From positions 62,001 to 126,000 of the forward strand of contig QPGO01000112.1 in assembly GCA_008632985.1 (NCBI GenBank): a stretch of 64,000 nucleotides of DNA, written 5' to 3'. The position numbers were made by a program, and so were the translations under genes. A model generated the notes under the pieces. It saw only the letters and a list, made by a program, of their open reading frames with translations. It made no database searches and was not told the DNA's origin. Below, piece by piece: positions 1-64,000 of the stretch. Source of the stretch: Psammoneis japonica. Lineage: Eukaryota. Position 1 is the stretch's first letter; each line of letters begins with the position of its first letter.

Positions 1-812
1 TTGACTTTGCCGAATTGGCTCCTCTGGTCGTCTGTGACCCTGTGCTCGATCTGAAGCCTTTCTTTGGCTTGGACGGTTGCCGCTGCGACAACACCTGCAC
101 CCTGCTGCCGCGTTCTGCTGTGGTGTTCAGCTCCCCCAACCCAGCAGAACTAGTTGCTCAGTGCTGAGCGCTCGAAGCACTAGATTGCTGCACCGCCCAG
201 TCCACCGTGCACGGCAAACAACGCGTTACCTTCATGGAGACGGACAGGAGCAAGCATTCCACGATTGGCCTGGCTGCCATGAGAGACGCTCGAATTTCTT
301 GCAAGCAGCCTGGCATGGCCGACCAACACACTCACCACCTCACCAGACTTCTTTCACGCATGGAGCACCTTGTCAATGAGTGCGTGGACCATGCCATCCT
401 CAAGGGTGTCGCTCGTGTCAAAAAGTTTCACAACTGGAAATCCCTGGCACGGTCAGATGGCATTTTCTCCTCTCTGGCGGCTGGGCGCAATGTCTTCCTC
501 AATGCCCATCGGGACCAGGACTTCTTCCTGTCAGTGGTCACCATGGTGGGAGTCCCTCCGTCCGGCAGCCACACCATGAATGATGGGATTGTGGCGTGCT
601 TCTGCTTCCCTGCCGAAGGCATCTCCGTTGCACTCCGGCTTGGTGATGTCATCATTTTTAACCCCACCAAGTGCCACCGCATCTCCAGCAGGACAAACTC
701 AAACGACGAGTTCTTCTGCGTGTCTCTCTACCTGAAGAGTGCTGCAGTGGGCAAGAGTGACAATTCAATCCCCCTTTCTCTAGAGGAAGAGACCATTCTC
801 AGGCGACTGTGA
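1..812 (+). pseudogene. TET/JBP-like 2OG-Fe(II) dioxygenase, 3' part, with in-frame TGA at 165-167
   Basis: GRNVFLNAHRDQD (HxD), FCFPAEGISVALRLGDVIIFNPTKCH (distal His) and VSLYLK resemble the double-stranded beta-helix motifs of TET/JBP-type oxygenases. The TGA corresponds to CGA in copy B. Confidence 0.65.
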
Positions 813-1034
813 CAGTGCAAAATAACTTGCTAAATTTGCGTAAATTTGCTGACTTTCTGTGCTCAGGCGACTGTGCAGGCACCTGCCAATTTGCTGGATT
901 TGCGCAAATTTGCCGACTTTCTGTTCTTCCTCGTTCCCATTTTTCGAACCACAACTGGGGCTACGCCTTTCCAACCAATGCTGCAGTTTCGCTGAAAAAC
1001 ACCAACACACTGTGCTGCTAATTTACAGAGCACA

Positions 1035-1673
1035 CTACACGGCAAACGTTTTGCCAGATGCAGAGCTTCTCCCCCCCGACTTGGGGAGTAGACGCGATTT
1101 CTTCTTCCGATTCATGGCACCCGACATCGCCTTCCTCTTCTTCTTCTTCTTCTCCGATTCGTCCAAGTTGCATCTGCAGAGAAATTCCTCCCCGGGCATG
1201 ATTCGCTTCGTGACTGCCAAGCACCCGTCATTGTAGAACTCGCAGTTGTTGTCTGCGTGTTGGCTTGCCTTGATCTTCTTCTTGTCCTTGAACGACTCGG
1301 TGGCATCGTTCACGCAGTGCATTCCGAGGCAGAGTGGATGGGAATTCTTGTTCCCTGGACTGCTAAAATCAAGCAGTTTTGGCTCCACTGTGACGTGGCA
1401 GCCCTCACTGTCATGGATGGTGGAGCAGCACACGCTGTGGTCTTCTCCAAACTTGCTGTCGTGGTCGCACCACGAGCAGCTCCTTGTCGCACCGGGCACC
1501 CTGGGGCCCACGTAGATTCCAACCATGCTGCCTTTCTGGAACTGGCGCAAAGCAAAAAAACCAATGCCTGCACCCCTCCGTTGCGACACGCGCAGCTCAC
1601 CCACCTCCACCTCCTTGGGGCCTGCGGAGCGAATGGACTTTTCGAGGCAAAACAACGCAGGTTGAAGTGACAC
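1035..1673 (-). pseudogene. SET-domain protein with basic C-terminal tail (mutated element ORF)
   Basis: GAGIGFFALRQFQKGSMVGIYVG, then MHCVND, NNCEF, AVTKRIMPGEEFLCRCN match SET motifs (GxGLFA..I.KG..IG.Y.G; NH; GEEL..Y) with Tyr replaced by Cys. KKKKKRK..RKKKSR is NLS-like. Confidence 0.75.
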
Positions 1674-1679
1674 GGCGCC

Positions 1680-2630
1680 TCATCCAAATGTGCACACTTC
1701 TGCACTTGCTCTCTTCATGAGGTGGACCAGTGTGAGCAACCACCCCGCTTCGAAAGCCTCAACGGCGGTCTTGAACACTTTGTTGCTCTTCGGCGTCGAG
1801 TCTGGGATGCCCCTCTTGCCGACTTCCGTGCGGCACCTCCACACCCACTTGCAGTGTTCGCCGTGAGCATTCGCGACGGCTTCAGGGTCGCTCCTGATGC
1901 ACCCCAGTTCTCCCAGCACGGGGAACCAGAGGTCGGGATCACTCGGCGCATCCTTCATCAGGCACATGGACTCCTGGAAATTATCGGATTTTTCGTGCCG
2001 CAACACCCAGTCCCACAAGTCGAATGACGGATCGTTGGGGTCCGGAAATTGCTTTCCTTCTTCTTCCTCTTCCGCCGTTGCTTTCGTGACCACTTTGGCC
2101 ACGGGCTTGGCTGCCTCCTCGCTTTTGCCGCTGCAAAAAGGCAGGACCTCCGGTTTCACAAAGGTGGCCTGATCACCCACCAACTCGATCTTGCAACCGG
2201 CCTCAAGGAGCTGCTCGGCGGTGCAACCCAGCTGCTGTGCTTCATTCCAACCACAAATTTGAAAGGTTGGCTCCGGCGGCACGGCTTTCTCCCTCTTTTC
2301 AGTTTGGGACTGCACCGGCTTCTCTGACATCCTTGCGCGTTCGGACTCGACGGACACACCCTCGGCACTTCCCTCGGCACCAAGTGCAGTCATGGCAGCT
2401 GCCGCCGCGCCTTCGGCGCCCGTGAGTTCTGCCATGACTTCCGGAGCTGCCACATCCTCTGCTTTGCCAGACGCAACGATGTTGTCCTCCGCCATTCTAG
2501 CGCCGTGATGACAGAGCTGCACTGACTGCTGTGTGGTGTGCTGCTTCATTCCAGCCGTTGGCGATCCACATCCTTCTGCGCACGTAAACGTATGACACTT
2601 CGCACCAAATTCCACGTAGCGCGTCTGCAC
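1680..2630 (-). pseudogene. Unknown element ORF, in frame with and upstream of the SET ORF
   Basis: 316-codon ORF conserved in copy B (60640-61620). Separated from the SET frame by a single TGA. Confidence 0.5.
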
Positions 2631-3065
2631 CTGTCTACGTCCGTCTTCACTACTGTACGCACTACGGTGCTGCAGCGCACCCTTTCAAACCTTCATTAAT
2701 GTTTATTTTTTCCTTCCTTTTCCTTTTCTCTTCTTCTTCTATCTGGCTGGGAGGAACTGCTGGATAGCCGGTGTATTGAAGCTTTCACTAAAGGAGGCTA
2801 CTGTAAGTTCCTTTTCTTTCTAGAGAGTCTAGAGGGCGTATCTCTTTTGCGTCGTCTGGAGAGGACAAACTGAACACCTCTAGCCTCTAGAGAGAGAATG
2901 CAAGTCGACTACGTAGGTGTCGCTCATGTCAAAAACTAAAAAAAAATAGATGTCGAAGAACTCACTTTTGATCTCCTCGTGACAAACTTAGCTTACAACA
3001 TGCTACCGTGATATGACATACTCAGTAGGAGTAACCAATTCCTTGTCACTACCAGCGAACGGTAC

Positions 3066-5544
3066 TTAAACGCCGCCCCTTCGCTCGATGTGAACAAGGT
3101 CCAAAACTTGGCGAAGATTGCCACTCGTAACGAGCCAGTCCCGAAAGCCTCTGTTCAACTCTTCTTCGAAACGAACTTGCTGTTCCTCTGTTAAATTCTT
3201 TTGGATCGCTTGTTGCAGGCTTCTCACTCGATCGGCCTTGTCCAAAGCTCGTCGCTCGTATTCCAATGGCAGATGAAACGGAGATAACTGCAGGATTTCC
3301 GCTAAATTGCGACAGTACTGGCTCTCCGTGACCCCTGTGGAAGATTCACCGTTTTGACGTTGCTCTTCAGTCTCCAATCGTCGCTGCTTCGCAGTGTCGG
3401 CCTCCAACGGGACTAGGAGTACTTGGAACTCAGAAGCAGGTAGCAGAACAGGAGTGTGCATAGTGTCATCATTTCCAGTACCAGACTTTGATCCTGTAAC
3501 CGCCTTATCATCTGCGCCAACTTGAGCTGCAGCTCCAGTAGCCCCGCCGGGAGATGTACCACCTGACGCAACCTGCGGAATCTCCAATTTGGAGAGTTCT
3601 ACCGGCTGCTTCCATTTATTGCTTGCACATTGCAACGGTGGGTAAGACGCGTCGTTTTCTTGGTTTCGATTCCCGTGGTAAGGAGACATGCTTTCTGGCA
3701 CAATAGCAGCAGCCAACCCTGTCGCCAACAAATCATCTCGAAGGCCATCATAATATGTGTTATACGGAGCAAATTGACAGTTGCGATTGTCGCCTACCAA
3801 CAAGGGTGGACTCGGTGTGAATATGCAATGAAGAACGTCAAAAGAATTGCTGACAAGCATTCGTCTCGAAGCGGATGTGACTGTCGTCTTTTCACAATTT
3901 ATAACATGAAGCAAGCCGGCTACAGCACCCACGACAATTGTACATCCGGTACAAGCGGCAATCGTCACGTGCTCAAAAGGCTGCAGCAAATACATGTGTG
4001 CATCAGAACAGTCGTATATCACCAAATCATGAAGACGACCACCACCAGATGAAGATACCCCAACATTTGACCCAGAAGAAGTAGATGCCCCCGACGACGG
4101 TCCATTGTCGGAGTAGTGAGAAGTCGGTTTGAGCAGTATGGTTGTTCCCCGCAAATGCGAGTAACTCAGTTCCTTTTGGTACGACTGTTGTGGTTGTGTT
4201 GCACGGCTCGTTTGCTCCTTTGCACCTGTTGATGTATCATCGCTGCTCTGGCGTGACTTTTTCTCTGAAAGTGACATAGAAGACAGTGCGGCAGTAGGGA
4301 CATCCTCCTCGCTGTGAGACGAGGATTGTGACCCCTCCGATTCCTGGTCGTGACCAGCCATAAGAAGTTCGAGTTCCAAGTGCCGCCGTATTTCTCGTTC
4401 GACTTCTGAAAGTGCAATTGAAGCTGTGGGGGGGACTTGTGACGAGTAGAGTACCGTCCATAGGAGGTCTCCAATCTTTAGTGGTGGGTCGTCGACGCCT
4501 CCGCCAGAAGGAGGTTGCAGCCAGAAATGAAATCTCTCAATGTCGTCCATCTTCAGTCTCACATCGGATCCTACATTGCCGTGTTCTTCATCGTGCTGTC
4601 GACGCAAGTCCTCTGCACTATGTTGGTTTGTTGCTCTTCTATTTGCGGAGGAGAGTGATGGAGGAGCAGGTGAAGGTATAGCCGCTAAATGCATGCAAGC
4701 ACGAACAGCCTCTGGATTGTGCGACACTGCTGACAGTAGCAAGAGTTTTCGCAAATGACGTAGTGCGTAGGCAATACAATGGGAGTTGTCGTTGTTCCAC
4801 CCTGCATGTATCCTAGTCCTGATTTTGTGAAAGAACAAAGGTGCACATGAGAGGGCACCAGGAAAACGAAAAAATAACTACAGGCGCGTTGCGACAGAAA
4901 CAAACATACCGTGGCGACAGAGCAGGATGCTTGAGGAGGCTTGTGAAATCCACTTTCCCTCTTGCGTTTTGAAGAACCGGTTCTGCAACACCAGAAGTTC
5001 CACCATAGAAACGGCGTTCGTCCTGACCACTTAAATTTCTTACATATGCCGATTCTTCACAATGCAGTAAAAGGAATGTGCCGATAAGCCACACGGGAAG
5101 TTCTTTCGCGGATGCTGAAGTTGAATATTTCTTCTTTTCGCCGCCGTGACCGGGCAGCGTTGTTGGAGTATTTCCGCTGCCTAGACTGCTCATACTTCCA
5201 CAACTTAGGATTGGAGGGATATGAGATTGATTTTCTTGATAATCTGCAGCATACGATTGTCCAGCCGAGTAAAGTGTATGATACATTGTAGCCATTTCCC
5301 AGAACAACGCTGCTGATGGTTCAGCCCATCCGAGCACACGCCATGCTTCTGTTATCCATAGAGTATATGGTATTACATTTTTTCGGTACGCTTGCTCCGA
5401 CAAGGCCGATGCAATAGCTAGACACAACGATGGCGTCAACTCACGGGCATGCTTCGGACTTAGTACGGCGCCTTCGAACGCATGGGGTTTGATGGATAGC
5501 CTCAGAACGGTATTTTCCGCAGTCGGAGTCCCTCCTGAGCTCAT
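3066..5544 (-). CDS. TBCCD1: TBCC domain-containing protein (TBCCD1-like), 2 exons
   Basis: C-CAP/TBCC beta-helix LVIYDCSDAHMYLLQPFEHVTIAACTGCTIVVGAV...FAPYNTYY and C-terminal FRDWLVTSGNLRQV. A GTATGT...ATCAG intron at 4909-4819 joins the two ORFs in frame. Confidence 0.85.
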
Positions 5545-13732: not shown

Positions 13733-13883
13733 AAAAACGATACTGGTATGCTCCGAAACCGAGAGTTGAATAATAATGTCCTAAGGCCCTACAGTATCAA
13801 ATAAATCAAAGCAATAGCTACGACTACTTAAGGTCCCGGAGAAGTTTTCTTACTATTTTTGTGCCTATTTTGAGCCATCTGAA

Positions 13884-19776: not shown

Positions 19777-19851
19777 CCTTCTCAAAGTTCAGCATGAAGA
19801 CTCACCAGCACGCGGTTGCAGTACACTGCGTCGTTTTCTCCTTTCAACGAA

Positions 19852-22263: not shown

Positions 22264-22334
22264 CGCGTAGATCACTGATTTAAGTTATGCTGCGTTCCCT
22301 CTCGAAATGACCGGTAACACCTCAAGCAATACAA

Positions 22335-24430
22335 TCAACGCCATGTTTGTTGTTGCATGCCCGCCCATCGCCCATCAACTGTTGCTCTGCAAAGACGGCT
22401 CACGGACAGACTCACGAATCTTTGCTGTGGCGGCTGGCGGGCAGGCATGGTGTGGCTGTGGGCGACAAGGGCTGTCCACAGACAATGTGACTCCGAAAAC
22501 TGTCATCCCGTTGGCAGGTCATCGAAATGGGAAGAGAAGCAAAAGTGAGAGGAGCAGAAAACAAAATATATTTGTGAAATGAAGGTCACCCAGAACAGCC
22601 TGTCAGATGGGCTGCAGTCTGTCCTGTCATTGTGCAGCGCACTTTGCATGATTTGGGTTGGCTGCCCACGAGACACCTCACCACACATGTTTCTCAATTT
22701 GTTTGCACAACATCTGGGATCAGAATCATCCAAGGAGTGGAAGAAGCCAAGGTCCATGCATGCAAGGTCAGCAAATTGATTCAAGTGACCAACAAAAAAG
22801 AAGAAGAAAAAGAAGTGTGCCGGTCAAAGAGCAACCACTTGACAAGGGTCCGAGGTTGATGAGCCAAGTTGAGAACCCAGAAAGAAGACTTGCTTCTTGA
22901 ACTCTGCACAATGAGGTTCTCCCCAAGGTTGGTTGGTTGAGTGAGTTGAGAATCATTCAAGGAAAATTTGCTTGAAAAAACCACCCACACAACAAGCAAG
23001 GCCCGAGGTCAACAAATCAAGCGAGAGCAGAGTCTTCTGTCTGCACTGCTTTCAAAAACATGCTGGCTGGGGTGCCATCTGCCAGCACATGGTGGTGCAA
23101 AAGAACTTCCATTGAGGGAAGACACTGCCACATGGTTTGCTCTCTAGATGATCCTGGCATGAAAGTCTGGCCAAGCCACATGTGGGACAAGGGTGCAGGA
23201 TGAAAACAGGGCAGATGCTGGTTTTTTTTGGAGGATCATCTTGGTCCCAAAGAAACTCTCCTGCTTTTGCCACTGCCAGCACCATGATGCCTTGCTTTTG
23301 ATGGCAGCCATGCATCCAAACTTGTCCTTGAGAATTTGTGTTGCATCCAGTTTTGTGCTGCCCCCAACTCAGGCTGCTTGAAGAGGTGGGAAGCAAGGTC
23401 TGTGAGAAGCCCAATGAAGCATGAGTGCAGTGTCTCCATTGGCAGATGAGTCAAAGAGCAATTTGTCATCTTGATCCCAAAGAAACTCTCCTGCTTGTGC
23501 CACTGCCAGCACCATGATGCCTTGCTTTTGATGGCAGCGATGCATCCAAACTTGTCCTTGAGAATTTGTGTTGCATCCAGTTTTGTGCTGCCCCCAACTC
23601 AGAGGCTGCTTGAAGAGATGGGAAGCAAGGTCAAAGAGAAACCCAATGAAGAAGTGCAGTGTCTCCATTGGCAGATGAGTCAAAGAGCAACTTGTTTGCT
23701 GTGTGCAAAGCTGGCTTGTCAAAAGTGTCATTTTGATTAGAGTGTTTGAGCTGTGCCGGAGGTGTTTTCAGCAATGCTTGGTGCAACTCCTTGCATGGCT
23801 CCATTGGCTGTGGCTGTTTTGGTGAAAAACTGCTCCAATTTGACAGTGCCCTCAGCAACCTCTGGCCCAGTGGATCTGCAGAAGAGGAGTTCTGCTGCTT
23901 GTCAAGAGGCATCTCTGATGCCATGATCCATTGTGGGGGGAGCAACCAACTCAAAGAGCCAGTCGGTTGCAACTGACTCACCAGGTCACAGAGTTCAATG
24001 TGTTTTGTGTTGGCGCTGTTCTTTTGGGAAGCCATGAAGAAAAGACTTCCAGCCCACAATGTGAGAGGTGTCTCCAATGCGGCCATGACATTCACTGTGG
24101 CAAGGCAACCAACTGAAGCCACCCACTTGGTCATGATCAACTCATCCAATCATGGAATTTGCTCTTGGCTGGAAACCAAAAGACCAGGAAAGAAAAACAC
24201 AAGCAATCCTTCTCAACAAGAAAATTGCCATCCTTTTCTTGCTGACTGGAATGGCTTGAACCACATGTGCCAGAGATTGAACAAGTGTGGCTTGCTCCAG
24301 TTGTTCCCATGCCTGGAACATTGGAAGAACAAATGGGGGGTGCAGACGTGGTCATCTTTTTGTCCCATCTGGGCTGCAGGTGCACTTGCACACAGGTTTC
24401 TTGCATCTTGTGCGGAATCTTTGCGATGAA
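22335..24430. mobile_element. Highly degenerate repeat patch, probably including a non-LTR retrotransposon 3' fragment on the minus strand
   Basis: Almost no TpA, few CpG in the core, and TG/CA-rich. The minus-strand IVGWKSFLHGF near 24050 resembles the IGW..FL.G motif of LINE ORF2 tails. Confidence 0.6.
23236..23695. repeat. Tandem duplication, 2 x ~230 bp
   Basis: TCATCTTG(G/A)TCCCAAAGAAACTCTCCTGC...GGCAGATGAGTCAAAGAGCAA occurs at 23236 and 23466. Confidence 0.95.
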
Positions 24431-24891
24431 AACAAATAATGTAAAAGCATCGAAAGCCGCTGCTCTGACGTGCCGGCGAAGACGGGCTTGAATGTCAACA
24501 ACGTTGGCGTATTTCTCATGCAGCAGTTCCTTGGCATTGAGTAATTTCTGTCCATGTCTCTCTAGGTGGACCAACTAAAGTAGCCACATACCAGAACTGC
24601 AATAGATAATGCTACTATACGGTGGATGCACTTGCTTCTACTCGAGTAGCAGTGACTTCTACTAGAGGAACGGTGGATACGTCGGGATAGCTATTTAATG
24701 CATACAACACACAAGATAAAGTATGTACTTTCCTCGTTGATCAGGCCTGAAATGCAAGCTGGATTCATTTCGCGAGGCTTTTGTGCTGAGGCGAAGCGAC
24801 GTCCATGAAGCTTGGAGCTGGTTGAGACTGCTTAACGAAAATTGAATATTGTTCATATTCACGTGGTGGGGTATGATTGATGCGATTGCTG

Positions 24892-50508: not shown

Positions 50509-52118
50509 GTTCCTTGCTTCTAAGTAGAACCCTCTCTTGATCGTCGTGGCGAGCTTTCGAAATGACCGCCAGATACCTCGATTAGACTATCATCAACTTC
50601 CCTTGCTTATAAGCAATGCATGCACCTGCACTGTCAGATGCGTTTGCGATTATTAACAACAGAAGAAGGAATGTTCACCTGTTGGCAGGTGCAAGTTGTT
50701 GGCACTTGGCAATTGGCCCGCCAAGCAAGAAAACAGGTGCAGTGTAGTCTGTCCTGCGTTCACCGAATTTGACAGGAAACCCCAGCACCATGCGGTAACA
50801 CGTGGTAGTTATTGTACAGGACGATTCCGCATGTACATTGTGTACCACAAGTGCAGTAGAAAAGCGCTGTACAGTATCTTGACCTTCTTGCTGACTGCAA
50901 CATTATCATCGACGATCAATTCGACTAATCTCAAAACCGCAGCTCACACCAGGACTAAAGTGAGGGGTTGAACAAGTTTGAAGCCCTCACCATCTGCAGC
51001 AACTCTGAGAATGAATTTACTTGAGGTTGGCATGCTCAAGAAAAAGGCAGGCACCACAACAGCCATGAACTTTTTTTGCAGTGCTGGTGACGAATGTCTC
51101 TCACAATGTCTCAATGCACAGCTGAGTTTCAGCCAAAAGTTCAAGCTGTTCAAGCAGGCCAGCCCCAAAAATGTGTTTGCAGCCTTGAAGAATGCCAAGA
51201 AAGGGGTGGGGGGGGGCAACAGTGTGCCTGAAGAACTGACAAAATGCACTGTGAACAAAAACTGAGACAGAAGATCAGCAGCGCCGAAAACGCGCCGGAG
51301 CACAGCCAGCTGTGGACTTTTTTTTTGACAACTGAGCTTCACGTTGTCAGTTGAGGCCACCAGAGATGTCTGATGCAGCCTCATAAAAACAATCAGCCCC
51401 TCTGCACAATTGCAAGCTGCCCAGCAATTGTGGCATGTTGTCAGCTGCAATTTTTTTGGAAAACAAACTTGGCAAGTCATCAAGCATGACAAAGGTTGGC
51501 ATCAAAATGCCAACAAGGAGTGCAGACATGACTGCTGAGACTGAGCCACACATTCAAGAAAAAAAGTGACAGCAAAAGAATTTTGGGTGTGTTCTTGGCC
51601 TGGTGAGATGCCAATGCTGCCCCAGCCATTTGCCGTTGTGTGCGCACTTCCCAAAGGCACACCTCAATGCTGGTGGCATGACAGAACATCGCAGGTTGCC
51701 ACAGGGCTTGCAATGGGGTGTGCCAAGATGATGTGTTGTGCGCCCCATGTGCTGCTTGATTGGGTGACAGCAGTTGCTGCACCTGGCAGGTGGGGCTTGG
51801 TGATGATTGTTGAAAGCAAAAACACCAAATTTGCAGCTTTTTTTCATCCAGGCTTTGTGAAAAGTTTGGTCTCTAAAATGAGTCAACAAGGACAGCAAAC
51901 AATGGCACCTGTCCAAGCATCTCACATTGGCTTTTTGACTTTTCTTGATGAACTGGGTTTTCACCAAATTGCCTGACTTGCCAATGGGTTGTCATGTGGT
52001 CATTTGAGCTAGAAGACGAGGCAGAGCTGCAAAATGGTCTCCTCATGTGTGCATCTGCTTTTGCATTTGCATCAACAGCAGGGTGCAAACTTTTCCAAAT
52101 TTACTCTGTGTGTTGGTG

Positions 52119-52266
52119 CTTGGGTTCTGCAACTTTTGCAACCCACAACCTTGGGCCCTGCGACTTTTGCAACAACCCGTGATCTTGGGTTCTGTGACTT
52201 TTGCAACCCACAATCTTCTTGGACCCAGTGACTTTTGCAGCTGTCCACAACCTTGGGTCCTGTGAT
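52119..52266. repeat. Degenerate minisatellite, ~4.5 units of 31-34 bp
   Basis: Units resemble CTTGGGTTCTG(C/T)(A/G)ACTTTTGCAACCCACAA. Confidence 0.85.
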
Positions 52267-52399
52267 GGTTCTGTGCAAGGCTGTTTTGCTCAACACTTGT
52301 GTGCACACTGCACCCAGAATTGCCTGTCTTGATCATCACACAAAGAGCAACAACAACTGGCACACTCCACCATGCAGAAGCCACAGTGTGCTGCGCCAT

Positions 52400-54200
52400 C
52401 ACAGAGACTGGAGGTGAGGAGCAGGTTGGTGAACAACATGCACAAGGAGGTTGATGATTGGATGAGCCATTTGCACACATGCTGTCCAGCAAGGAGGCAC
52501 CAAGTGTGGTCATGGCAGAGGCAGCCAAGCATCTGGGGGGCAACATCTCCCGCTTTGAATGGGGAGAGAGAGCAGTGGGTCACAGAAATGTTGGCTTGGA
52601 ATGCTGCAACTGCCAAACATGGGTTCAATGACAAATTCTTGATTGGCGCTGCTGCTGCTCAAGTGTTTCTCCATTGTGTTGAACAAAATGACAGAGTGCT
52701 GTTGTTGCTCTTCTTGTGCACAACTGCGGCACTGTTGGAAGGTGCACTGCAGTGTCTTGGACTCCTCAACTTGGCAAAACAGCAAGTGGGTGTTTGCTGT
52801 GTGGTGTCATTTCAACATGTTGATTTGAGCTCATTGGGAATTGCACACAAGGGCTGCAGTCTGGACTCAGTGTGGAGATGTGCCCATCCAGTTTGAGCAA
52901 CTGAGAAACAAATGACAGAGTGCCAAATGGGCAGCAAGACAGGCAACAAACAACCAGAAGCAAGTGGAGAGCTGACACTGGGTTTCCCAGGTGAAGCTCA
53001 AGTCCCAATCATGCACACAACAAAGAGAATGATGCTCTTTTGTGCCCCACTCTTGATGAGCACTGTGGTCACAGCCTTGTTGCACCTCTTTGGCATGATC
53101 CTCTTGATGAAGAAAAGCACAAGATTTCTTGTGACAAAAGCAAATGCTGCAGCCCAAAAAGAAAAAGCTGGTTTTGTCTGTCTGGAAGAAAAGGGGCAAT
53201 GGAGTGGCCTTTGATGCAGGATGTTCACAAGTCATCTGCACAGGGTTGGCTTGTGTTGATGTGCAACTCCACCAAGTGGCAGGTGGAAGACACAGAGAGG
53301 CTTGTTGGAAGATTGCAAAGCAGCGTGTGATTGAAACACAAACACATTGGATGGAGGGGCTCAGGACAGTGATGACAGGCACAAAGCAGCCCTGGGAGCA
53401 TGTCTTGTCAATGTGCAGAGATGGGTCACAAGGCTGCTGCTTTGACTGATGCAGCATCAAGACTGAAATGAGGAAATTGATTTGGGGCATTGGCCAGCAC
53501 TCTTGCCACAATGTTGACTGCTGCCAGGAACTGCTTGGCAAAAGTGCTCCTGTCCATGGCACACCTCAATTTGGGTGTCCAGACCTGCTGCTGAAAATGC
53601 ATGGAGAAATGCTCTGCCAGCAGACAGTGTTTTGTGTGGTGATGTGCAGACAGCCAGTCATGGAAGAAGGCAACATTGTGGCATCAGACTTGAGTGGTGT
53701 TCCTGAGATGTCTTTCGAAAGGAGTGGGCAGTGACGAGACATGCAAACAGTGGCTGAGCCAGAGCACAAAGATCCAGTTGCCAGTGCTGCCTTGCCACAA
53801 CACCTGCGCATTTAGCACGAGAGTGCAGACAAGCTTGCCTCAATTGCTGGATGCAAAATTGAGGGTTCTGAGTCACCCCAACATCAGGGCAAGCTTGCCA
53901 TTGATGTTGCTCTGTCAACCTGTTTGTTGTGCATTGCTGTGCTGGCACTGTTCTTGCAGCAAAAAGAGGGGAAAAGGTTGGCTGCTGTGAGCTGCAACAA
54001 TGAAGGAAATTTTGGGAAGAGCCTGTTGCTGCAAGTGCTTGCATCTGTTGTCTCCAGTTTTGTCAGATGACGCTTGCTCCTCCAAGCTCTCATTTTGGCC
54101 TGTCATTGCTGACAAACTGTGCAGCAGCCATGCAAATTGTTCATTCCCCAGCTGCACTCATCAAAGATGTCTGTGCTTGAATGATTCTTGCATGGCACTG
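52400..54200 (+). mobile_element. Possible non-LTR retrotransposon ORF2 relic (post-RT region and RNase H-like start)
   Basis: Fragments THWMEGLRTVM, GNIVASDLSG..MSFE (cf. RNase H IVASDGS..SFGW) and IADKLC (cf. N..AD.LA) appear in the expected order but are very degraded. Confidence 0.4.
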
Positions 54201-54999
54201 TTGTGGACTCTCTGGCTGGGTGTTCATTTGTTCGTTGCAGATCTCACCTTTCTTGTGTTTGCTTGGCCTCCGGCACCTTGCTCAGGGTTTCCAACCCCCT
54301 TCTAGTCTAACTGGACAGTGATGACTGCTGGTGCAAAACATCTAGAGCCACTGGTCTCTGTGCCCACCCCTCAAGCTCCTTGCACCGGGCCAACTCCTCT
54401 TCAGAGCTTCAGTGCCTCTCAAGGAGTCATGTTCAATGTTCAATGTTGGCACTTCTGCTCCCTCCAAGAAGCAGAGGAAAAAAAGAGCACCAGCACAGTG
54501 CTGTCATGCAGTTTGCAGATGACTCTTTGGCAACTGTTGTCTGTGACAAAAAGAAGCCTTCTTCATGTGTACAATCAAGCAGTCTGTGGTCAAGTCTTCA
54601 GCAACTCAAGTTGGGCCAGCCATCAGCACCTGGCTCAGCTCACACCACCACCCTTCTGATCCAACAGCAGTGCAAAACATGCAGCCACCAGCTCCTGCTG
54701 AGCATCTGGGGTTGGCAAGAACCCTTTTAGAATGTCTGCCAAGAAGTCACCAGATGTGCCAGCCATCTAAATTGCACACACAGAATGACCCCTCTGGATT
54801 GCATTGATGGAAAACAAACAGATCATCAAACACATTTGTGACCTTGCTCGCTGGATCAACAAAACACTTCATGCAAGTGTGACGAGTCCTTTCCATCACA
54901 ACCTTGCTGCTGTGCAGACCCTTGATCAGGTCCACAACCCAGTCATTGACTGCAGACAAAGTCAAACTTAAAGAGCTCTGTGTTGTGGCAGGTTCACTT

Positions 55000-56200
55000 C
55001 CCTTCAGAAGGTCTTGCTGCTTGCTGCAATGATGTCATGCTGGAACAACCATGACAACTTCAAAGTGTCACAGATGACACCTTTGTCATCTCACACCAAT
55101 CCAAATTGACCGCCTTTTTTCCAGTGTGTCAACAGGTGCCACAATTCACAACAAGGGGACCACACAAACCATGCTGGTCCATGCCACAGGTGGGACAACT
55201 TGCTGACAACAGCCCATGCAGATGGTTTGCACCTTCCTTGTCTGGGACAAACTCCAAATTGTTGCCTTGTGATCCCGTGATTGTTTCTTCATCATGCTTG
55301 TCACTGCACTCATCTTGATGGTCTTCCCTGCAACAACATCCCATGCCTTGTGTCCAGGTCTTGTGTCCTTCCATGCCACATTGTTTGACATCAGTCTCAA
55401 CTTGCCTGGATTGTCAAACATGGAGAGCATTGGTGCAGTGGAGGGCATGTGCTTGTGCCCTTCTTGACTCTGCATCACTTCAATTTTGCACACCTTTTTC
55501 ACAAGGTTGTGCCTCTCTGTCCACAGCTTGTGGGGCTCTTCCTCAAACTCACTTGCATGCCTTTTGTTCAATCTGCCAACAATGCTCCAGACAACTTTTC
55601 CTTTCCTTTCAAACTCAATCATCAACAAACCCATTCCAAGGAATTTTCTTCTCCAGGCTTGGCTGGCTGGGCAACAGAGGATGTGGTCATGGTGGTCTTC
55701 CATGGGACACTCACAATTCAAGAAATGGTGGGGCCTGACTCAGTTGCACCAACGAACCATCTTTTTGGCAGGAAGCAGTTTGTGGATGAGCTTGATGGTG
55801 GACATGTGTTGCTTGGAGCTCTGGGAAATTAGCACTGCATGAACCTTCCAATTGATCATGTGTGGGCAACTTTTTCAGTCCATTGACTTCATTCCTGGAT
55901 GTGTTCTAGAAGTGGAGGAGCCATGGCAGCATGTTGCACTGAAGGCTTGAGACCCAAAGTGATTGTGCTGTCACAGAAAGGGAAAGGCAACTTTGGCAAT
56001 TTGGAAATGGAAATGCATGAGCAGTGTTGTGTTCACATTGACCCTGATGCTGGCCTCTGTGAGTTTGTTGGTGCACACATTCACTCTGGTGTTGAGAGGC
56101 AATGACTCTGCTGGGGTGGAACGGAATCAGCGGCCCTTCACCCAGGTGTTTGAAGGTGATGAAACTGGAGGGTCATTGTCTGACAGTGACTCAATGTCTG
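55000..56200 (-). mobile_element. Non-LTR retrotransposon ORF2 C-terminal relic
   Basis: INWKVHAVL...TIKLIHKLLP...NCECPMEDHHDHILCCPASQAWRRKF...LWTERHN matches the C..C...E..DH...C zinc-binding tail of LINE ORF2. Confidence 0.6.
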
Positions 56201-56399
56201 CATGTGTTTGAAATGTCTGGTTCACCACATCTCAATCTGGCAACAGAGCATCTGCACCATGGCATTGGAGCCAACAGTCTTGTTCTTTGAATGCAGCAGT
56301 CATTGGATCCAACAATGGCAGGGTGGCAAATGAGTCAAGAAGCAGCACATGCACAAGCCCCTTGTTGTTGCAATGTGCTTCAACTCCTTGGCACTTTGT

Positions 56400-59300
56400 G
56401 ATGTGACAAAATTTCAGAAGGCAGAAAAGAAATCTTGATGCCAAAAAGACACCATGCATTTCTGCCCAGAGCACCACTCCACAGTGTCAACAACAGCTGT
56501 CATCAGCATTCCTTCCAACAATGTGCTGTCAGCCTGGCTGACTCATCTTTGTCTGGCCATTCTCTGTCAGTTTTCTGTTGCAAACCATTTGTCCCTTCAT
56601 GTGACTGTCTCGCTTCTCCATTTGGAACATCAGTGCAACCATGGCCTTGGTTGTCTCAGTTGGAGTCATGTCTTTGATCAATTGTGGTGCAAAACACACC
56701 CTGTTCTTGTGGAGTTGCTCAATCTCATTCTCTGAGGCGTTGTGCCTTCTCCGGCCAAATGCTTTTGGGTCTTCATGCAGCACCAGATGCTGCTGGGTGA
56801 GGGAAGTGCTCTTTCCTGATTGGAGTCAGTTGTCAATTTCACACATGAATCATGCTGATGCTGCTCCTGTTTCCATGTTGTGCTCAATGTCACCCCCTGG
56901 GGTTGGGGCTTGTGTTCATTCTCAAACAATGGCAGTGCTCAAGCTTGTTTTGTTCTTGCTCTGCTTTTGCATCTGCCACTCCTGACATCAAACTTTCTTT
57001 GCTCTGTGTTCATGTGTCTTCTCATTGTGGGATGCACCGCACTTTGTGCCACTCCTTGTCACTCTGCCTGGCATTTTTCTTAACTCTTCCACTGGTTTCT
57101 CTTTTCCACTTTTCTTGTCTGGGAACACTTCCTCTTTCTGATTTTTTGTCTGACACTCTGTGGTCTTCTTGTTCTCTTTGGCTTCTTCTTGGCTCTTGGG
57201 CTGTCAATTGAGGCTGGATCTTTTGCTGCTGGCATCTCATTTGCTTCACCATGTTGATCATTTGAGTCAGGTTTGTCTTCACAGTCTTTGTCTTCAGACT
57301 CAGCCACACAGCTGGCATTGTCTTGCTTGTTGTTGTTTTTGTCCATGCTTTCATCTTTGCTGTCACTTAAATTGTTGTCCACTCCTGTGGTCCAATCAGC
57401 ATTGCACACAGGCTGTCTCCATGTTTGCTCACAAATTTGAAGTCTTTGATGCCTTGCACCATTGCCATCTTCTTCTTGACCCCTTGCACACATGCATTGG
57501 TCAGGGGGATGGCATGGTGCACTTGCAGGGACTCAGTGGCTTGCTTGTGTGCAGGTTCACAAAGCAGTGGCTGCCCTTGGGAACATTGAAACGTGGTCAC
57601 AGACACATGTTGTCAATGCCATGTGTGTCCACCATGGTGTTTGTCAAGTTGATTTCAATGTGAGACAGGAGGACAAATGAACCAAAGGCAAAATTGAAGT
57701 GCTTGTTGCAGCCAAGGTTCCTTCATTGCATGATGGTGTGCAGACTGTGTGTGTTGAAAATTCCTTTCTTCTGTGGGCACATGTTCACCATCATGGTGTT
57801 CTTGAAAACATGGCATGCTTGCACATCAACTTGGGTGTCGCCTTGTGCAGCAGGTGATGTGCAGTGGCTGGAGATTGCTCCTTGATGGTCACAGTGGGTG
57901 CTCCACTCCACTTCAGGAACATGGTCACCAGTGTTTGCAGACACCAGTTCTGAGCTTGTGCCATCTGCGACTTCCTTCAGCATGTCTTTGAACTCAGAAC
58001 CACACTCAACAAAGTCAATCTTGAACAAAGCTGTGTTGCATTGCCATGTCCAGTGCATTGCACACACACTGACATGCTTCTTGGACCTCAGTCTTACACA
58101 CTCAATTGTCACATGTCATTGTCTTGTCAGTTGAGTGCAGCATTTAAACTCCTCTGCATGCTTCCATGATGTCAGTGCAGATGATCACACCTTCTTTTGG
58201 TTTCTTGCATGCATCTCAGGTGAAGTTGCTGCAATTTTGCTCCTCTCATGGGATTGTTGTGGGTGTTTGGCATTTTAACGCATTGATGAGTGTGTCCCCC
58301 AAATGGCCGCTGTCCTGTCCTCCATGTCTTCAGGTGCGATGGACAAGTTCTTCACCTGGTTTGATCACAAAAAAAGCTTTGAATCTCTCACACTGGGAAT
58401 TCCAGTCTGAGCACTTGCTTGGCATTTGCCACCTCCCTCTTGGCATGGCCTGTGGAGTTCTGCTCCACTGTCAGAACTGTGATTCTGCGCACACTCCTCC
58501 ACTTCTTGTTGCTGTCCTTTTTTCATTTTTTTCTTCTTTGATGGCATGCTTCTTGCGTGTGACTTGCTTTCTTAGAGAGATGTTTTGCATGGTCAAAGAA
58601 CTTCTGGCTTGATGTGAAGGTGTGCAGTCTGATGTCATTGACTTGGAACACTGCAACTTGCTTGCCAGTCTTCTTGTCCAACAGCTGGAACTTGTCCAGC
58701 ACCACTCGGTTGTCATGTGTGATGAAGCACTTGTTCTTCACACCCTTCAAACTGAGGATGTTTGCTGTTGCATTGTGCAATCCAAGCTTCACATCCCCCC
58801 ATTCAGGCATGGTGCAGTTTTCACCATCTGGGACATCCATTCCTGCATTCTTGAACCAGTTGTAAAATGCAGCGTTGTTTCAATGTTTGCAGTCTGGAGA
58901 GTTGTGCCCCAGTTCACTGCAACAGCGGCACACTGCAGCATTGCTCTGGTTTCTCTTCTGGACATGGCTCTGGTCCTTGGAATTCTTGGACCTCTTGCTC
59001 TCATTTTCAACATTGTTGTTCTTGTTGTTTGTGCACTCATTGTTCCCCATGCTGTGACTTTTGTGAGGGCAATTGTCTTTTGGATGATTCAGCAGCACAT
59101 CCATTGCCTTGTCAATGGTCTTTGGATGCATGTGCTTGCCCAGGCTGCAGTCTCGGATGAAGCTCTTTTTTAAGCTCTTGCAGCAGCAATTGTTGCTGTT
59201 CTCCATGAACAGAAATGTCATGCTGCATGTGTCAAAAAGCTGCATCCTTCAGCACTTGCTTTTCCATTGTGGCGCCATCCTTGCACACCTTGGCATTGGA

Positions 59301-60040
59301 AATGACTCCATCTGGCACTCTGTTCCCCTGTGACTTTCACTTGCAGCATCTTGCTGATTCTTGAATCTCAACAGGCAGCAATTTGGCAACTCATTCTTTT
59401 GTTGTTTCATGTCCAGCACACTCTGCAGGGACTTGACAAGTGTGTGAAACGGGTGTGGAGCTCTCATTGAGTGTCAAGTGCAAGAGACTGGATCAGCTTC
59501 AACAGCTTGATTGGGTTGTTTCTGACACACAAGCAACTGGGATCACCTTGCAGCCACTCTCTGCTTCATCAGCTTGGTGCAGTGATCATCTAAGATCTGG
59601 GTGAGTGTGGCAGTCTTGTTCTCTTTGAACTGCTTTGCTTTGTTGCCACACTGGCGTGGCTCCGCTTTGTGCTGGTGCTCCAGTTTTTCATCCTCTTGTT
59701 GCTTCTTTTCCAGCACAGTTTGGCAGTCTTATGCTGTCACAAGTGGTGTTGTCATCATTGGCATGCTTGAGGTTGGTTTCTCAGATCTAAAGTCCTTGTG
59801 TTTCACATTTTCTGGAGATCTCACCAAATGCACGCCTTGGGTGCACTCTTTCTGCATGTGGCAATGGATGATCTTCTCCTTGACATCTTTGCATGTTGCA
59901 CTGCAAGTGTTGCTGTTCAGTGATGAAGGATGGAACTTTGTCTCAGGCTGAAAGTGCTTCTCAATGTTGGTCTTCTTTGTTGGGTCAGAGGTTCTCAGGG
60001 CCTTGGTTGTCAGATCTGCCACTTCCTTGGCCACTCATTG
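56400..60040 (-). mobile_element. Ty1/copia (CoDi-like) LTR retrotransposon relic: gag, zinc knuckle, protease region, integrase, truncated RT
   Basis: In copia order on the minus strand: gag ATCKDVKEKII...FLFMENS...DCSLGKHMHPKTIDKAMDVLLNH; knuckle CRCCSELGHNSPDC (CX2CX4HX4C); ANILSL...ITHD; integrase SEFKDML...DHVPEVE; RT EIEQLH...KAMVALMFQMEKRDSHMKG. Confidence 0.9.
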
Positions 60041-60639
60041 TGCAGGTGCTCAGCAATGACTTGGCTGCAGGTGGAGTGGTGTTGCCAAGCACCAAACATG
60101 GTGCTTGTGACTCTTTGGAGTGAACATTGAACCAGCAAGTCAATGTTGCCAAAAGGGATCTCTTGATGCAAGCTTCAAACTTGTGGTGCAACAGGTGCCC
60201 AGTGGCACTGATCCAATGACATTGTGCAAACCAAATGGGCCAAATGATTCACTCCAAAGAGAGGGACAAGCAGAAAGGTGAAAAAGATCGGTGACGATGA
60301 GTTTTCAATTGCAAAAAGAAGAGTCGCCAAATCTTTCCCATGTCAGGAGCAACAGCATCTTCGCTCTCTTCAACAAATCTGGGTTCCTAAAATTTCCCAG
60401 CATCTTCCAGATGTTCCAACAGAGATCGGAACACTTTCATCTTCTGCACAGTGTTGGCTTGACTTTGATGAGGGGCAAGGGCAGTCTTGCAGAGCTGCGT
60501 GTGTCGCAGTCGTGAGATGAATGACACACCGGCTGTCCAGCAGTTCCTCCCAGCCAGACAGAAGAAGAAGAGAAAAGGAAAAGGAAGGAAAAAACAAACA
60601 TTGATGAAGGTTTGAAAGGGTGCGCTGCAGCACCGTAGT

Positions 60640-62250
60640 GTGCACAGCAGTGAAGACGGACGTAGACAGGTGCAGACACGCTGCATGGAATTTGGTGCGA
60701 AGTGTCACACGTTTACGTGCGCAGAAGGATGTGGATCGCCAACGGCTGGAACAAAGCAGCACACCACACAGCAGTCAGTGCAGCTCTGTCATCACGGCGC
60801 TAGAATGGCGGAGGACAACATCGTTGTGTCTGGCAAAGCAGAGGATGCAGCAGCTCTGGAAGTCATGGCAGAACTCACGGGCACCGAAGGTGCGGTGGCA
60901 GCTGCCATGACTGCACTTGGCACCGAGGGAAGTGCCGAGGGTGTGTCCGTTGAGTCCGAACGCGCAAGGATGTCGGAGAAGCCGGCGCAGTCCCAAACTG
61001 AAAAGAGGGAGAAAGCCGTGCTGCCGGAGCCAACCTTTCAAATTTGTGGTTGGAATGAAGCACAGCAGCTGGGTTGCACCGCCGAGCAGCTCCTTGAGGC
61101 CAGTTGCAAGATCGAGTTGGTGGGTGATCAGGCCACCTTTGTGAAACCGGAGGTCCTGCCTTTTTGCAGCGGCAAAAGTGAGGAGGCAGCCAAGCCCGCG
61201 GCCAAAGTGGTCGCGAAAGCAACGGCGGAAGAGGAAGAAGAAGGAAAGCAATTTCCGGACCCCAACGATCCGTCATTCGACTTGTGGGACTGGGTGTTGC
61301 GGCACGAAAAATCCAATAATTTCCAGGAGTCCATGTGCCTGATGAAGGATGCACTGAATGATCCCGACCTCTGGTTCCCCGCGCTGGGAGAACTGGGGTG
61401 CATCAGGAGCGACCCTGAAGCCATCGCGAATGCTCACGGCGAACACTGCAAGTGGGTGTGGAGGCACCGCACGGAAGTCGGCGAGAGGGGCATCCCAGAC
61501 TCAACGCCGAAGAGCAACAAAGTGTTCAAGACCGCCGTCGAGGCTTTCGAAGCGGGGTGGTCACTCGCACTGGTCTGCCTCGTGAAGAGAGCAAGTGCAG
61601 AAGTGTGCACATTTGGATGAGGCGCCGTGTCACTTCAACCTGCATTGTTTTGCCTCGAAAAGTCCATTCGCTCTGCAGGCTCCAAGGAGGTGGAGGTGGG
61701 CGAGCTGCGCGCATCGCAACGGAGGGGCGCAGGCATTGGTTTTTTTGATTTGCGCCAGTTCCAGAAAGGCAGCACGGTTGGAATCTACGTGGGCCCCAGG
61801 GTGCCCGGTACGACGAGGAGCTGCTCGTGGTGCGACCACGACAGCAAGTTTGGAGAAGACCACAGCGTGTGCTGCTCCACCATCCGTGACAGCGAGGGCT
61901 GCTGCGTCACAGTGGAGCCAAAACCGCTTGATTTTAGCGGTCCAGGGAACAAGAATTCCCATCCACTCTACCTCGGAATGCACTGCGTGAACGATGCCAC
62001 CAAGTCGTTCAAGGACAAGAAGAAGATCAAGGCAAGCCAACACACGGACAACAACTGCGAGTTCTACAACGACGGGTGCTTGGCAGTCACGAAGCGAATC
62101 ATGCCCAGGGAGGAATTTCTCTGCAGATGCAACTTGGACGAATCGGAGAAGAAGAAGAAGAAGAGGAAGGTGACGTCGGGTGCCATGAATCGGAAGAAGA
62201 AATCGCGTCTGCTCCCCAAGTCGGGGGGGAGAAGCTCTGCATCTGGCTGA
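60640..62250 (+). pseudogene. Unknown-domain ORF plus SET-domain ORF, same frame, interrupted by TGA at 61618-61620
   Basis: Homologous to 1035-2630. GAGIGFF...KGSTVGIYVG, HPLYLGMHCVND and REEFLCRCN are present. Confidence 0.7.
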
Positions 62251-62487
62251 ACGTTTGCCGTGTAGTGTGCTCTGTAAATTAGCAGCACAGTGTGTTGGTG
62301 TTTTTCAGCAAAACTGTGGCATTGGTTGGAAAGGCGTAGCCCCAGTTGTGGTTCGAAAAATGGGAACGAGGAAGAACAGAAAGTCGGCAAATTTGCGCAA
62401 ATCTGGCAAATTGGCAGGTGCCTGCACAGTCGCCTGAGTGCAGAAAGTCAGCAAATTTATGCAAATTTAGCAAGTTATTTTGCACTG

Positions 62488-63933
62488 TCACAGTCGCCTG
62501 AGAATGGTCTCTTCCTCTAGAGAAAGGGGGATTGAATTGTTGCTCTTGCCCACTGCAGCACTCTTCAGGCAGAGAGACACGCAGAAGAACTCGTCATTTG
62601 AGTTTGTCCTGCTGGAGATGCAGTGGCACTTGGTGGGGTTAAAAATGATGACATCACCAAGCCGGAGTGCAACGGAGATGCCTTCGGCAGGGAAGCAGAA
62701 GTGCGCCACAATCCCGTCATTCATGGTGTGGCTGCCGGACGGAGGGACTCCCACCACAGTGACCACTGACAGGAAGAAGTCCTGGTCCCGATGGGCGTTG
62801 AGGAAGACATTGCGCCCAGCCGCCAGAGAGGAGAAAATGCCATCTGACCGCACCAGGGATTTCCAGTTGTGAAACTTTTTGACACGAGCAATGCCCTTGA
62901 GGATGGCATGGTCCACGCACTCATTGACAAGGTGCTCCATGCGTGAAAGAAGTCTGGTGAGGTGGTGAGTGTGTTGGTCGGCTGTGCCAGGCTGCTTGCA
63001 AGAAATTCGAGCGTCTCTCGTGGCAGCCAGGCCAATCATGGAATGCTTGCTCCTGTCCGTCTCCATGAAGGTAACGTGTTGTTTGCCGCGCACGGTGGAC
63101 TGGGCGGTGCAGCATTCTAGTGCTTCGAGCGCTCGGCACTGAGCAACTGGTTCTGCTGGGTTGGGGGAGCTGAACACCACAGCAGAATGCGGCAGCAGGG
63201 TGCAGGTGTTGTCGCAGCGGCAACCGTCCAAGCCAAAGAAAGGCTTCAGATTGAGCACAGGGTCACAGACGACCAGAGGAGCCAATTCGGCAAAGTCAAT
63301 GTCAGCAAGACAAGGTGGTGCAGGCTGAGTGTAGTCGCCGTTGTGAACCAGAGTGCGGTTGGCTACGCAGCGCATGGAGAGACTCTCAGTGGCGCACGGT
63401 GCGAGTGGAACAAGGCGAGCAATCTTGGATGTTTTTGCACTGGCACGGCTGCGGATTCGCCTGCGGCTGCGGTGGGCCTTGCGAAGTGGCGGTTGAGCCC
63501 TCAACACATTCTCGCATGTCCTGGTGCGCATTGACGATGCGGTGTTCGCAGAGAACGTGTGTGCAAACTTGCCGGCAAATGTTCCGCTGCTTGACACTGT
63601 CACTGTCATCTCAACAGTGCCCAAAGCAGAACTCTTTCAACAGGGACCGGCGGACTCTAGGGGAGTGGGGTCAAAACCTGATCGAGAGATGTGTCTGCTT
63701 TCCGTTGCCTCAAGAGCACCCAAAGCAAAACTCTGTTGACAGGGACCGGCAGACTCCAGGGGAGTGGGGTCGAGACCCAATCGCAAGAAGCATTTGCTTG
63801 TTGTCGGGCTGCGAGCTGCATGTCCCAAACCCCCACACTGTTGAGACCGGCTGTAACTCGATCGCGACAAGTGCTTGTCGTTGGTGGGACGACGCAGCGA
63901 GGCACGAGGCAGTTGCAACATGGTGTGTCTCAA
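62488..63933 (-). pseudogene. TET/JBP-like 2OG-Fe(II) dioxygenase with N-terminal extension, one in-frame TGA at 63637-63639
   Basis: ORFs 62488-63624 and 63637-63933 share a frame. NAHRDQD...GDVIIFNPTKCHCIS gives the HxD...H triad. Confidence 0.65.
63620..63800. repeat. Two imperfect ~99-bp tandem units encoding a 33-aa repeat on the minus strand
   Basis: CCCAAAGCA.AACTCT.T..ACAGGGACCGGC.GACTC.AGGGGAGTGGGGTC occurs at about 63620 and 63719. The peptide G(L/F)DPTPLESAGPC occurs twice. Confidence 0.85.
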
Positions 63934-64000
63934 TTTGAAATGTGTTTCAAAATGTGATGACGGAAGTGTTGTCGCGTTGTTTTTGTCTCCGCGGAGGGAG

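Follow-up and report, generated by a model that had tools for sequence, protein, structure and literature searches.

The DNA described here is a stretch of 64,000 nucleotides from the pennate diatom Psammoneis japonica (GenBank assembly GCA_008632985.1, contig QPGO01000112.1, positions 62,001 to 126,000 of the forward strand), called the window below. It contains two inverted copies, A and B, of a multi-copy mobile element with a predicted TET/JBP-like dioxygenase gene, together with two tracts from which the TA dinucleotide has almost vanished. Some of the inserted or repeated DNA of this diatom appears to undergo two transition processes, each tied to its own sequence context and each with TpG/CpA as its end point, a reading to which a probability of about 0.8 is assigned. 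One would be the decay of CpG to TpG/CpA, as expected of methylated repeats; the other would be a hypermutation of TpA to TpG/CpA, that is, of A:T to G:C. Older insertions would have been driven along this course until nearly every pyrimidine-purine step was TG or CA. The features that carry this reading are given with window coordinates and with observed/expected ratios (O/E) for the dinucleotides.

1..2774, minus strand: copy A of the multi-copy mobile element, truncated where the window begins; TA O/E 0.22, CG O/E 0.78
60526..64000, plus strand: copy B of the element, alignable to A up to 63299; TA O/E 0.15, CG O/E 0.77
50957..60525, no strand: saturated tract of 9569 bp adjoining copy B; TA 27 (O/E 0.04), CG 63 (0.11), TG 1194 (1.78), CA 1032 (1.96)
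22331..24436, no strand: second saturated tract of 2106 bp; TA 4 (O/E 0.03), CG 26 (0.21), TG O/E 1.81, CA O/E 1.62
Rest of the window: TA O/E 0.59, CG O/E 1.00, TG O/E 1.11, CA O/E 1.11

At the frequencies of the rest of the window, the long tract would hold 370 TA and 572 CG steps; it holds 27 (P = 6e-120) and 63. All other dinucleotides there lie at O/E 0.78-1.28, with AA at 1.28 and AT not depleted, and the tract is complex rather than low-complexity sequence. Its left border and both borders of the 22331-24436 tract are sharp to within tens of base pairs. Over the final 225 bp of the long tract the read depth is that of single-copy DNA, and this stretch matches the reads exactly and is fully converted. 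Within this one window, the TA-poor signature is confined to four tracts as against the remainder.

The missing steps were compared with the gained ones by a mass balance, in which the missing CG and the missing TA are added to the rest-like TG+CA to give the predicted TG+CA. Predicted and observed values were 2175 and 2226 in the long tract, 469 and 450 in the second tract, 464 and 464 in copy A, and 595 and 609 in copy B. In the two saturated tracts the TG+CA excess equals the missing TA plus CG within 2-4%; in copies A and B almost no CG is missing and the missing TA alone accounts for the excess. The indices commonly used for repeat-induced point mutation (RIP) ranged from 0.04 to 0.30 for TpA/ApT and from 1.46 to 2.05 for (CpA+TpG)/(ApC+GpT).

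Copies A and B form the arms of an inverted repeat (1-2774 and 60526-63299), 2774 nt long, gap-free and 96.0% identical. Read depth over copy B is repeat-like as far as the window end, and the end of the element is marked at 60524/60526, before which other copies have different flanks in contigs of the public sequencing run X1. Self-BLAST found A and B only, with no third copy in the window. The two copies differ at 110 positions, by 107 transitions and three transversions. Counted by dinucleotide these make 92 events: 30 CG/CA, 27 CG/TG, 17 TG/CA doubles, seven TA/TG, six TA/CA and five others. Of the 107 transitions, 104 are in pyrimidine-purine steps, where the background would put a fraction of 0.474 (binomial P = 6e-30). 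A and B split recently, with a background divergence of 0.26% (6 of 2300 sites outside CG, TA and double steps). Since then 13 of 32 TA steps (41%) and 57 of 188 CG steps (30%) have come to differ, where the totals count steps present in either copy and 41% against 0.26% is a relative divergence and not a measured rate. The per-base excess at TA and CG over other sites is roughly 50-80-fold.

Eight of the 13 TA-class differences fall inside the first 200 of the 2774 bp (P = 7e-7). This terminus was compared as A 2774..2575, reverse-complemented, against B 60526..60725.

2575..2774, minus strand: terminal 200 bp of copy A, unconverted; TA 11 against 11.9 expected, CG 13 against 11.1, TG+CA 25 against 23.1
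60526..60725, plus strand: terminal 200 bp of copy B, converted; TA 3 against 10.4 expected, TG+CA 36 against 23.2

The two ends differ at 11 positions, and copy B is in the TG/CA state at all of them. At eight of them A reads TA where B reads TG or CA (B 60535, 60559, 60595, 60603, 60643, 60648, 60683 and 60708), one fewer than the initial annotation of this DNA had counted. The other three are CG in A (B 60641, 60678 and 60685), as that annotation had it, and its remark that no other type of substitution was noticed in the stretch agrees with the present count of eight plus three. The four sequence examples it quoted, AGATAGA/AGACAGA among them, were all found, as were the protein-level differences VSLYLK in A for VSLCLK in B and HPLYLG in B for HPLCLG in A. 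TG and CA products are interleaved within the terminal 200 bp, and both strands are therefore affected.

Positions 200-430 of the element retain a single TA in each copy against 8-9 expected, and beyond position 430 the two copies hold 18 and 17 against 115 expected. The bulk of the TA loss is older than the A/B split, and the terminus was spared until recently; possibly a copy had to keep its ends intact to remain mobile. Before the split the family had already lost its TA (O/E about 0.16) and hardly any of its CG (about 0.77). The copy holding the TG/CA state alternates in runs along the element, with 23 runs among 70 single events (P = 0.004, runs test). The longest run comprises 17 events at element positions 8-425, eight of the TA class and nine of the CG class, all converted in B (P = 0.0015). 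Such runs are compatible with regional episodes and equally with mosaic ancestry by recombination among copies.

The A/B pair alone gives no direction because its pattern reads equally as C>T (CG to TG/CA to TA) or as A>G (TA to TG/CA to CG), and the initial annotation went too far in calling this evidence polarised. Direction was taken from protein homologues of an open reading frame (ORF) of the element.

62488..63624, minus strand: TET/JBP-like 2-oxoglutarate/Fe(II) dioxygenase ORF of copy B, predicted, 378 aa, open; H278, D280, D282 and H334 kept
30..821, plus strand: the corresponding ORF of copy A, truncated where the window begins; TGA at 165-167 (CGA in B), Tyr TAC at 729-731, Cys TGC at 597-599

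An exhaustive HMMER search with the 378-aa ORF returned 724 homologues at E<=1e-3, 406 of them at E<=1e-10, and the best 150 listed of the 724 were aligned with both copies for polarity. The informative columns are those in which Tyr outnumbers every other residue and reaches a share of at least 43% among the homologues.

Column 194: Tyr in 90% of homologues; His in B, His in A
Column 236: Tyr in 43%; Cys in B, Cys in A
Column 299: Tyr in 55%; His in B, His in A
Column 308: Tyr in 89%; His (CAC) in B, Cys (TGC) in A
Column 352: Tyr in 95%; Cys (TGC) in B, Tyr (TAC) in A

At these conserved positions copy B now has His (CAY) or Cys (TGY), each one transition away from TAY, in five columns of five, and copy A in four of five. 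Judged by its codon, every lost conserved Tyr is the product of a TA to CA or a TA to TG change. Two of the losses, at columns 308 and 352, are later than the A/B split, and the TG/CA double at column 308 descends from TAC. Four further columns with Tyr in 35-38% of homologues carry Phe or Leu and are uninformative. In the copy B ORF, Tyr amounts to 0.3% and Cys to 4.8% of the residues, as compared with 3.2% and 2.7% in the homologues. The HPLYLG/HPLCLG site is unpolarised because a word-indexed protein search gave no match for ORF2, one of the plus-strand ORFs described further on. Homologue polarity also gave the direction CG to TG/CA at six columns (125, 146, 164, 179, 183 and 196); at column 164, CGA in B stands against a TGA stop in A. 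No polarised site runs from TG/CA to TA, the direction of RIP.

Sequencing reads were drawn from the public run X1, which contains 0.49 of the sampled 31-mers of copy B; two further runs, X2 and X3, gave one and zero contigs and carry no evidence about absence. Depth in X1 is about 133 over the unique flank (alleles about 70 and 67) and 1200-5400 over the element, which is represented by 769 contigs; the family is therefore multi-copy, with a rough estimate from depth of about 15-35 copies per haploid genome. At least 99% likeness to copy B was found for 215 of the 769, and 116 of the 136 variable places among the contigs are transitions. One contig of single-copy depth (425 nt, depth 70) runs from the unique flank of B to 60553 with 0 differences over 60300-60553. 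Because this flank-joining contig matches through 60553, the G at 60535 in copy B is confirmed; the check covers this one of the eight terminal TA sites.

Over the stretch comparable with A, the letter of copy B is absent from X1 at 13 places among those listed, and all contigs there have the letter of A. At eight of the 13 the family has CG where B has TG or CA. At 62570 the family has TA, with the T belonging to TAC (Tyr) on the coding strand, and B has CA. The adjacent places 61465/6 form one TG-to-CA double, and 61748 and 62249 are changes of other types. At 63188 all X1 contigs have C (CGT, Arg). Reads and homologue consensus concur at both places where both tests apply, 62570 (Tyr) and 63188 (Arg). 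The Tyr columns, the reads at 62570 and the saturated tracts thus uphold, independently of the A/B pair, the direction TA to TG/CA that had first been proposed, and they support its interpretation as a separate A-to-G (T-to-C) mutator acting on repeats. The direction of CpG decay was seen at the six columns and in the CG of the X1 contigs at eight places where B alone has TG or CA. As far as sequence can tell, the CpG changes are of the methylation-decay type. In the flank of copy B, a second X1 contig of equal depth shows small deletions at 60363, 60393 and 60399 and is probably the other allele of a diploid genome.

Several observations weigh against the two-process reading or narrow it. The 17 TG-versus-CA doubles (for example at 60752/3, 60848/9 and 62702/3) compare with about four expected for independent, equally mutable sites, and this roughly four-fold excess points to a simple two-process model being incomplete and to strong differences among sites or tracts. 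At least one double comes from TA; two, at 289/290 and 361/362, have an ancestral G and therefore fit a CG ancestor. At column 335, where 74% of homologues have Cys, B has TGC (62620-62622) and A has CGC (678-680). This is apparently a TG to CG change in A, and the sole polarised change that creates a CpG. For 11 of the 13 TA-class events, the copy converted is also the one converted at the nearest CG-class event, an agreement that is only weakly significant (P = 0.08). The eight terminal TA sites are not polarised singly, their direction being inferred from the rest of the pair. As one window was analysed, the term 'repeat-targeted' rests on four tracts, and run X1 may come from the assembled sample and would then not be fully independent. 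The evidence is comparative, drawn from sequences and not from de novo mutations.

Other accounts of the same data were considered. Were the polarity reversed, a RIP-like C-to-T change at CpA/TpG would have made the TA sites of A while CpG decay acted in B. The symmetry of the A/B comparison, which alone cannot exclude this, leaves room for it, and fungal RIP does turn CpA into TpA according to the accessible text of PMC2621366. Nevertheless, such a course is scarcely credible: His and Cys at conserved Tyr codons cannot be produced by C-to-T change, and both TpA/ApT and (CpA+TpG)/(ApC+GpT) are opposite to those of RIP-affected DNA, judged by the usual thresholds. It would also need A to be derived at 8 of 8 TA sites and B at 9 of 9 CG sites over positions 8-425. 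The terminal 200 bp of A have a normal dinucleotide content without TA excess, and the reversed polarity is contradicted wherever a site could be polarised. An account that needs no mutator has the TA- and CG-poor composition inherited from a donor, such as a virus, or produced by selection against UpA and CpG in RNA. Selective UpA/CpG suppression is described for RNA viruses and mRNAs in the accessible part of PMC3829696, and the O/E for TA is already 0.59 in the rest of the window. Yet an O/E of 0.03-0.04 across 9.6 kb leaves no room for Tyr codons, strongly conserved Tyr residues were lost to the detriment of the protein, and a difference at 41% of TA steps over a background of 0.26% makes the loss recent and copy-specific; this account has next to no standing.

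A technical origin, in which modified bases (5-methylcytosine, 5mC, in CpG; an altered T or A in TpA) were miscalled as TG/CA in sequencing or assembly, could explain the 13 letters of copy B missing from X1 among the places listed and the presence there of only 0.49 of its 31-mers. Logan contigs drop rare variants by construction, which explains the absence of private letters. The depth-70 contig with 0 differences over 60300-60553 includes both the end of the saturated tract and the first TG site of B, 215 of 769 contigs are at least 99% alike to B, the variation of the contigs themselves is mostly transitional (116 of 136 places), and the Tyr to His/Cys changes are common to both copies, which makes miscalling highly improbable. 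Editing at the RNA level would have ADAR-like A-to-I conversion of double-stranded element transcripts fixed through reverse transcription and reinsertion. The family is multi-copy, and the A edited by ADAR preferably has a U on its 5' side, a point made in bioRxiv 10.64898/2026.01.13.699255. This route is very unlikely, as the last 225 bp of the saturated tract are fully converted despite being single-copy. Pfam found no reverse transcriptase in three element ORFs and 76 long-tract ORFs, TA to TG and TA to CA changes are interleaved on both strands within 200 bp, and AA, the other context favoured by ADAR, is undepleted (O/E 1.28). The Bigelowiella natans signature, moreover, arises in single-copy integrated virus during clonal growth (same preprint, accessible text). 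GC-biased gene conversion was rejected since it would not be TpA-specific, and strand-specific deamination coupled to transcription or replication was rejected on the near balance of TG (1194) and CA (1032).

The dioxygenase ORF escaped several searches. Pfam gave no family at E<=0.1 for the three element ORFs tried, this one included; a word-indexed protein search gave no match for the 378-aa ORF, nor did a profile search of PDB sequences. A fold from the single sequence was useless, with a predicted local distance difference test score (pLDDT) of 33.4. The model built from a 70-sequence alignment reached a pLDDT of 91.6 and a predicted template modelling score (pTM) of 0.91, and its best Foldseek matches were CcTet, CMD1, NgTet1 and TET2. 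In VIA-align, TET2 entries scored Z 18.0-18.4 (270-281 residues aligned, root-mean-square deviation 4.2-5.1), CMD1, NgTet1 and CcTet scored Z 13.3-14.6, and FTO and AlkB about 11. The match at Z 18.4, to human TET2, aligned 274 residues with a deviation of 4.4. Among the 70 sequences H278, D282 and H334 are invariant and D280 is present in at least 90%, giving an HxD...H iron-binding motif in which one of the two Asp would bind the metal. By modelled fold and motif, the ORF is a TET/JBP-like dioxygenase gene of a multi-copy mobile element, and it reads as degraded in both copies. No transposase was identified in the part of the element visible within the window. Two further ORFs of the element lie on the opposite strand.

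60640..62250, plus strand: two same-frame ORFs of copy B, with a stop at 61618-61620 between them; they span the HPLYLG/HPLCLG site

No relatives of these two ORFs were detected by Pfam or, for ORF2, by a word-indexed protein search. The in-frame stop at 61618-61620 is common to both copies and could stem from an old lesion or mark an intron or a read-through site. Beyond the part comparable with A, copy B holds two imperfect 91-bp tandem units (window 63610-63799, 79% identity).

How TpA would be converted under the two-process reading can be set out in outline. What the sequences show is which way the change goes, in which contexts it occurs, that it is restricted to tracts with sharp borders and how large it is in comparison with other sites. 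Beyond this, the process would be an active and targeted one on DNA, as was measured directly in B. natans; it would recognise silenced or inserted DNA, and it may serve as a genome defence. It would attack either strand of the self-complementary TpA, given that its two products, TG and CA, alternate and are close to balance, and it would stop once the step is TG or CA. The published candidate for the enzyme is an adenine deaminase acting on TpA; a TET/JBP-type enzyme oxidising thymine at TpA would be an alternative. Enzymes of that type are thymine hydroxylases. On an extended and rather unlikely version, both conversions would belong to one system whose target in silenced DNA is the 5-methylpyrimidine of self-complementary pyrimidine-purine steps. 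A TET/JBP-type oxidase, from the gene family that the element itself carries, would attack 5mC in CpG and thymine in TpA by oxidation; misreading or misrepair of the products would yield C>T and T>C respectively, so that CG and TA both end as TG/CA. The leads for it are that TA and CG conversions co-occur by tract and by copy, that oxidised thymine is mutagenic, and the dinoflagellate preference of a modified thymine for TA and TC, together with its overlap with 5mC, cited below from PMC11572971. The early family lost TA and hardly any CG, which argues for separable processes and against a single system. In a still wider form, TpA-directed DNA editing may be an ancestral defence of the stramenopile-alveolate-rhizarian group, which would appear as mutation in Bigelowiella and diatoms and as 5-hydroxymethyluracil (5hmU) at TA in dinoflagellates.

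Further observations concern the saturated tracts and their surroundings. Pfam recognised no protein family in the long tract among 76 of the 81 stop-to-stop ORFs of at least 70 aa in 50600-60500, the five left out being those that overlap copy B; two sub-threshold matches were not credited. A profile search of the saturated tracts found no remnant of the TET-like family. On the plus strand of 56001-60000, T exceeds A (AT skew -0.25 to -0.29) and TG and CA are still nearly balanced. Within the second tract, 23236-23695 is a tandem duplication of about 230 bp with 93.6% identity; it is later than the conversion because its differences are not of the TG/CA kind, and as such it was of no help as evidence of direction. 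The ordinary genic DNA (2775-22330 and 24437-50956) has TA O/E already at 0.59 and CG at 1.00, which may or may not reflect a weak genome-wide form of the same process. Proteins of the neighbouring genes have their best named matches in Nitzschia, Cylindrotheca and Pseudo-nitzschia (61-66% identical), the best unnamed match being 69% identical; by these genes the DNA falls with the raphid pennate diatoms.

Among the homologues, four of the 150 representatives (P0132, P0216, P0241 and P0252) are Tyr-poor (0.4-0.9%) and have His or Cys at several conserved-Tyr columns, so the same signature may be present in other public sequences. Locus scans found no relatives in metagenome contigs with the window protein and P0252, or in viral contigs with P0121.

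Mutation is normally biased from GC to AT and, to our knowledge, RIP was before 2026 the only well-known repeat-directed hypermutation, one that follows this bias. The present case suggests that a process of the opposite sense is widespread among major marine phytoplankton. TA-poor, TG/CA-rich tracts would offer a simple genomic marker of old insertions beyond the reach of similarity searches. The annotation of transposon and viral insertions in diatoms is affected, since such copies lack Tyr codons and have Cys and His in abundance. Copies that are young and only partly converted, like A and B, provide material for the study of enzyme preferences and timing.

Several known systems can be compared with the pattern. 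Deamination of 5mC explains the 57 CG-versus-TG/CA singles and part of the 17 doubles, but the loss of TpA and the replacement of Tyr codons by those for His or Cys are beyond it. ADAR-type hyper-editing leaves one-strand A>G clusters with AA favoured, whereas here TG and CA alternate and the O/E of AA is 1.28. Fungal RIP is alike in being a context-specific transition hypermutation in repeated DNA that saturates tracts and destroys reading frames. It is opposite in making TpA from CpA and lowering GC, and its indices are inverted in the diatom; the duplication dependence of RIP is not shown here, the end of the saturated tract being single-copy.

For the dioxygenase gene, the nearest parallel is provided by TET/JBP dioxygenases encoded in fungal DNA transposons (Kojima 2025, PMC12730594, accessible text). 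As far as that text goes, the TET fold, the HxD...H motif and the multi-copy mobile element are shared, and the diatom host, the degraded copies and the silence of the Pfam model are different. Literature searches found no diatom report of transposon-borne TET/JBP genes. In a dinoflagellate, a TET/JBP thymine hydroxylase marks transposons with 5hmU, which takes the place of T with a preference for TA and TC and coincides with 5mC on repeats (accessible part of PMC11572971).

The initial annotation knew of no described pathway for the loss of TpA; the phenomenon is now described in Bigelowiella natans (Mettrop et al., bioRxiv 10.64898/2026.01.13.699255, of which part of the text was available). 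Literature searches for the TpA hypermutation signature found this preprint only and no diatom report, and 'TpA' is absent from the accessible text of a mutation-accumulation paper on P. tricornutum (PMC6604790). In the B. natans mutation-accumulation lines, two integrated viral regions took up 231 of the 302 nuclear mutations, and 230 of these 231 were A>G or T>C, all on TpA. They occurred at about 1000 times the background rate and in some lines only, and the authors propose an ADAT2-like adenine deaminase. The change from TpA to TpG/CpA on both strands is common to the two organisms, and transposon-type genes are enriched among TpA-poor sequences in B. natans too, according to the same text. 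The hosts belong to different supergroup branches, B. natans being a rhizarian and the diatom a stramenopile, and de novo mutations were measured in the former whereas the diatom evidence is comparative. The depletion is far deeper in the diatom, at O/E 0.03-0.04 against a Rho of 0.45 in the nucleocytoplasmic large DNA virus (NCLDV) region of B. natans as given there. Loss of TA coincides here with loss of CpG, and neither 'CpG' nor 'diatom' occurs in the accessible B. natans text. The young target in the diatom, unlike that in B. natans, is a multi-copy element with a predicted TET/JBP-like gene. The Psammoneis case brings a scarcely known phenomenon into the diatoms and displays the saturation in which it ends.

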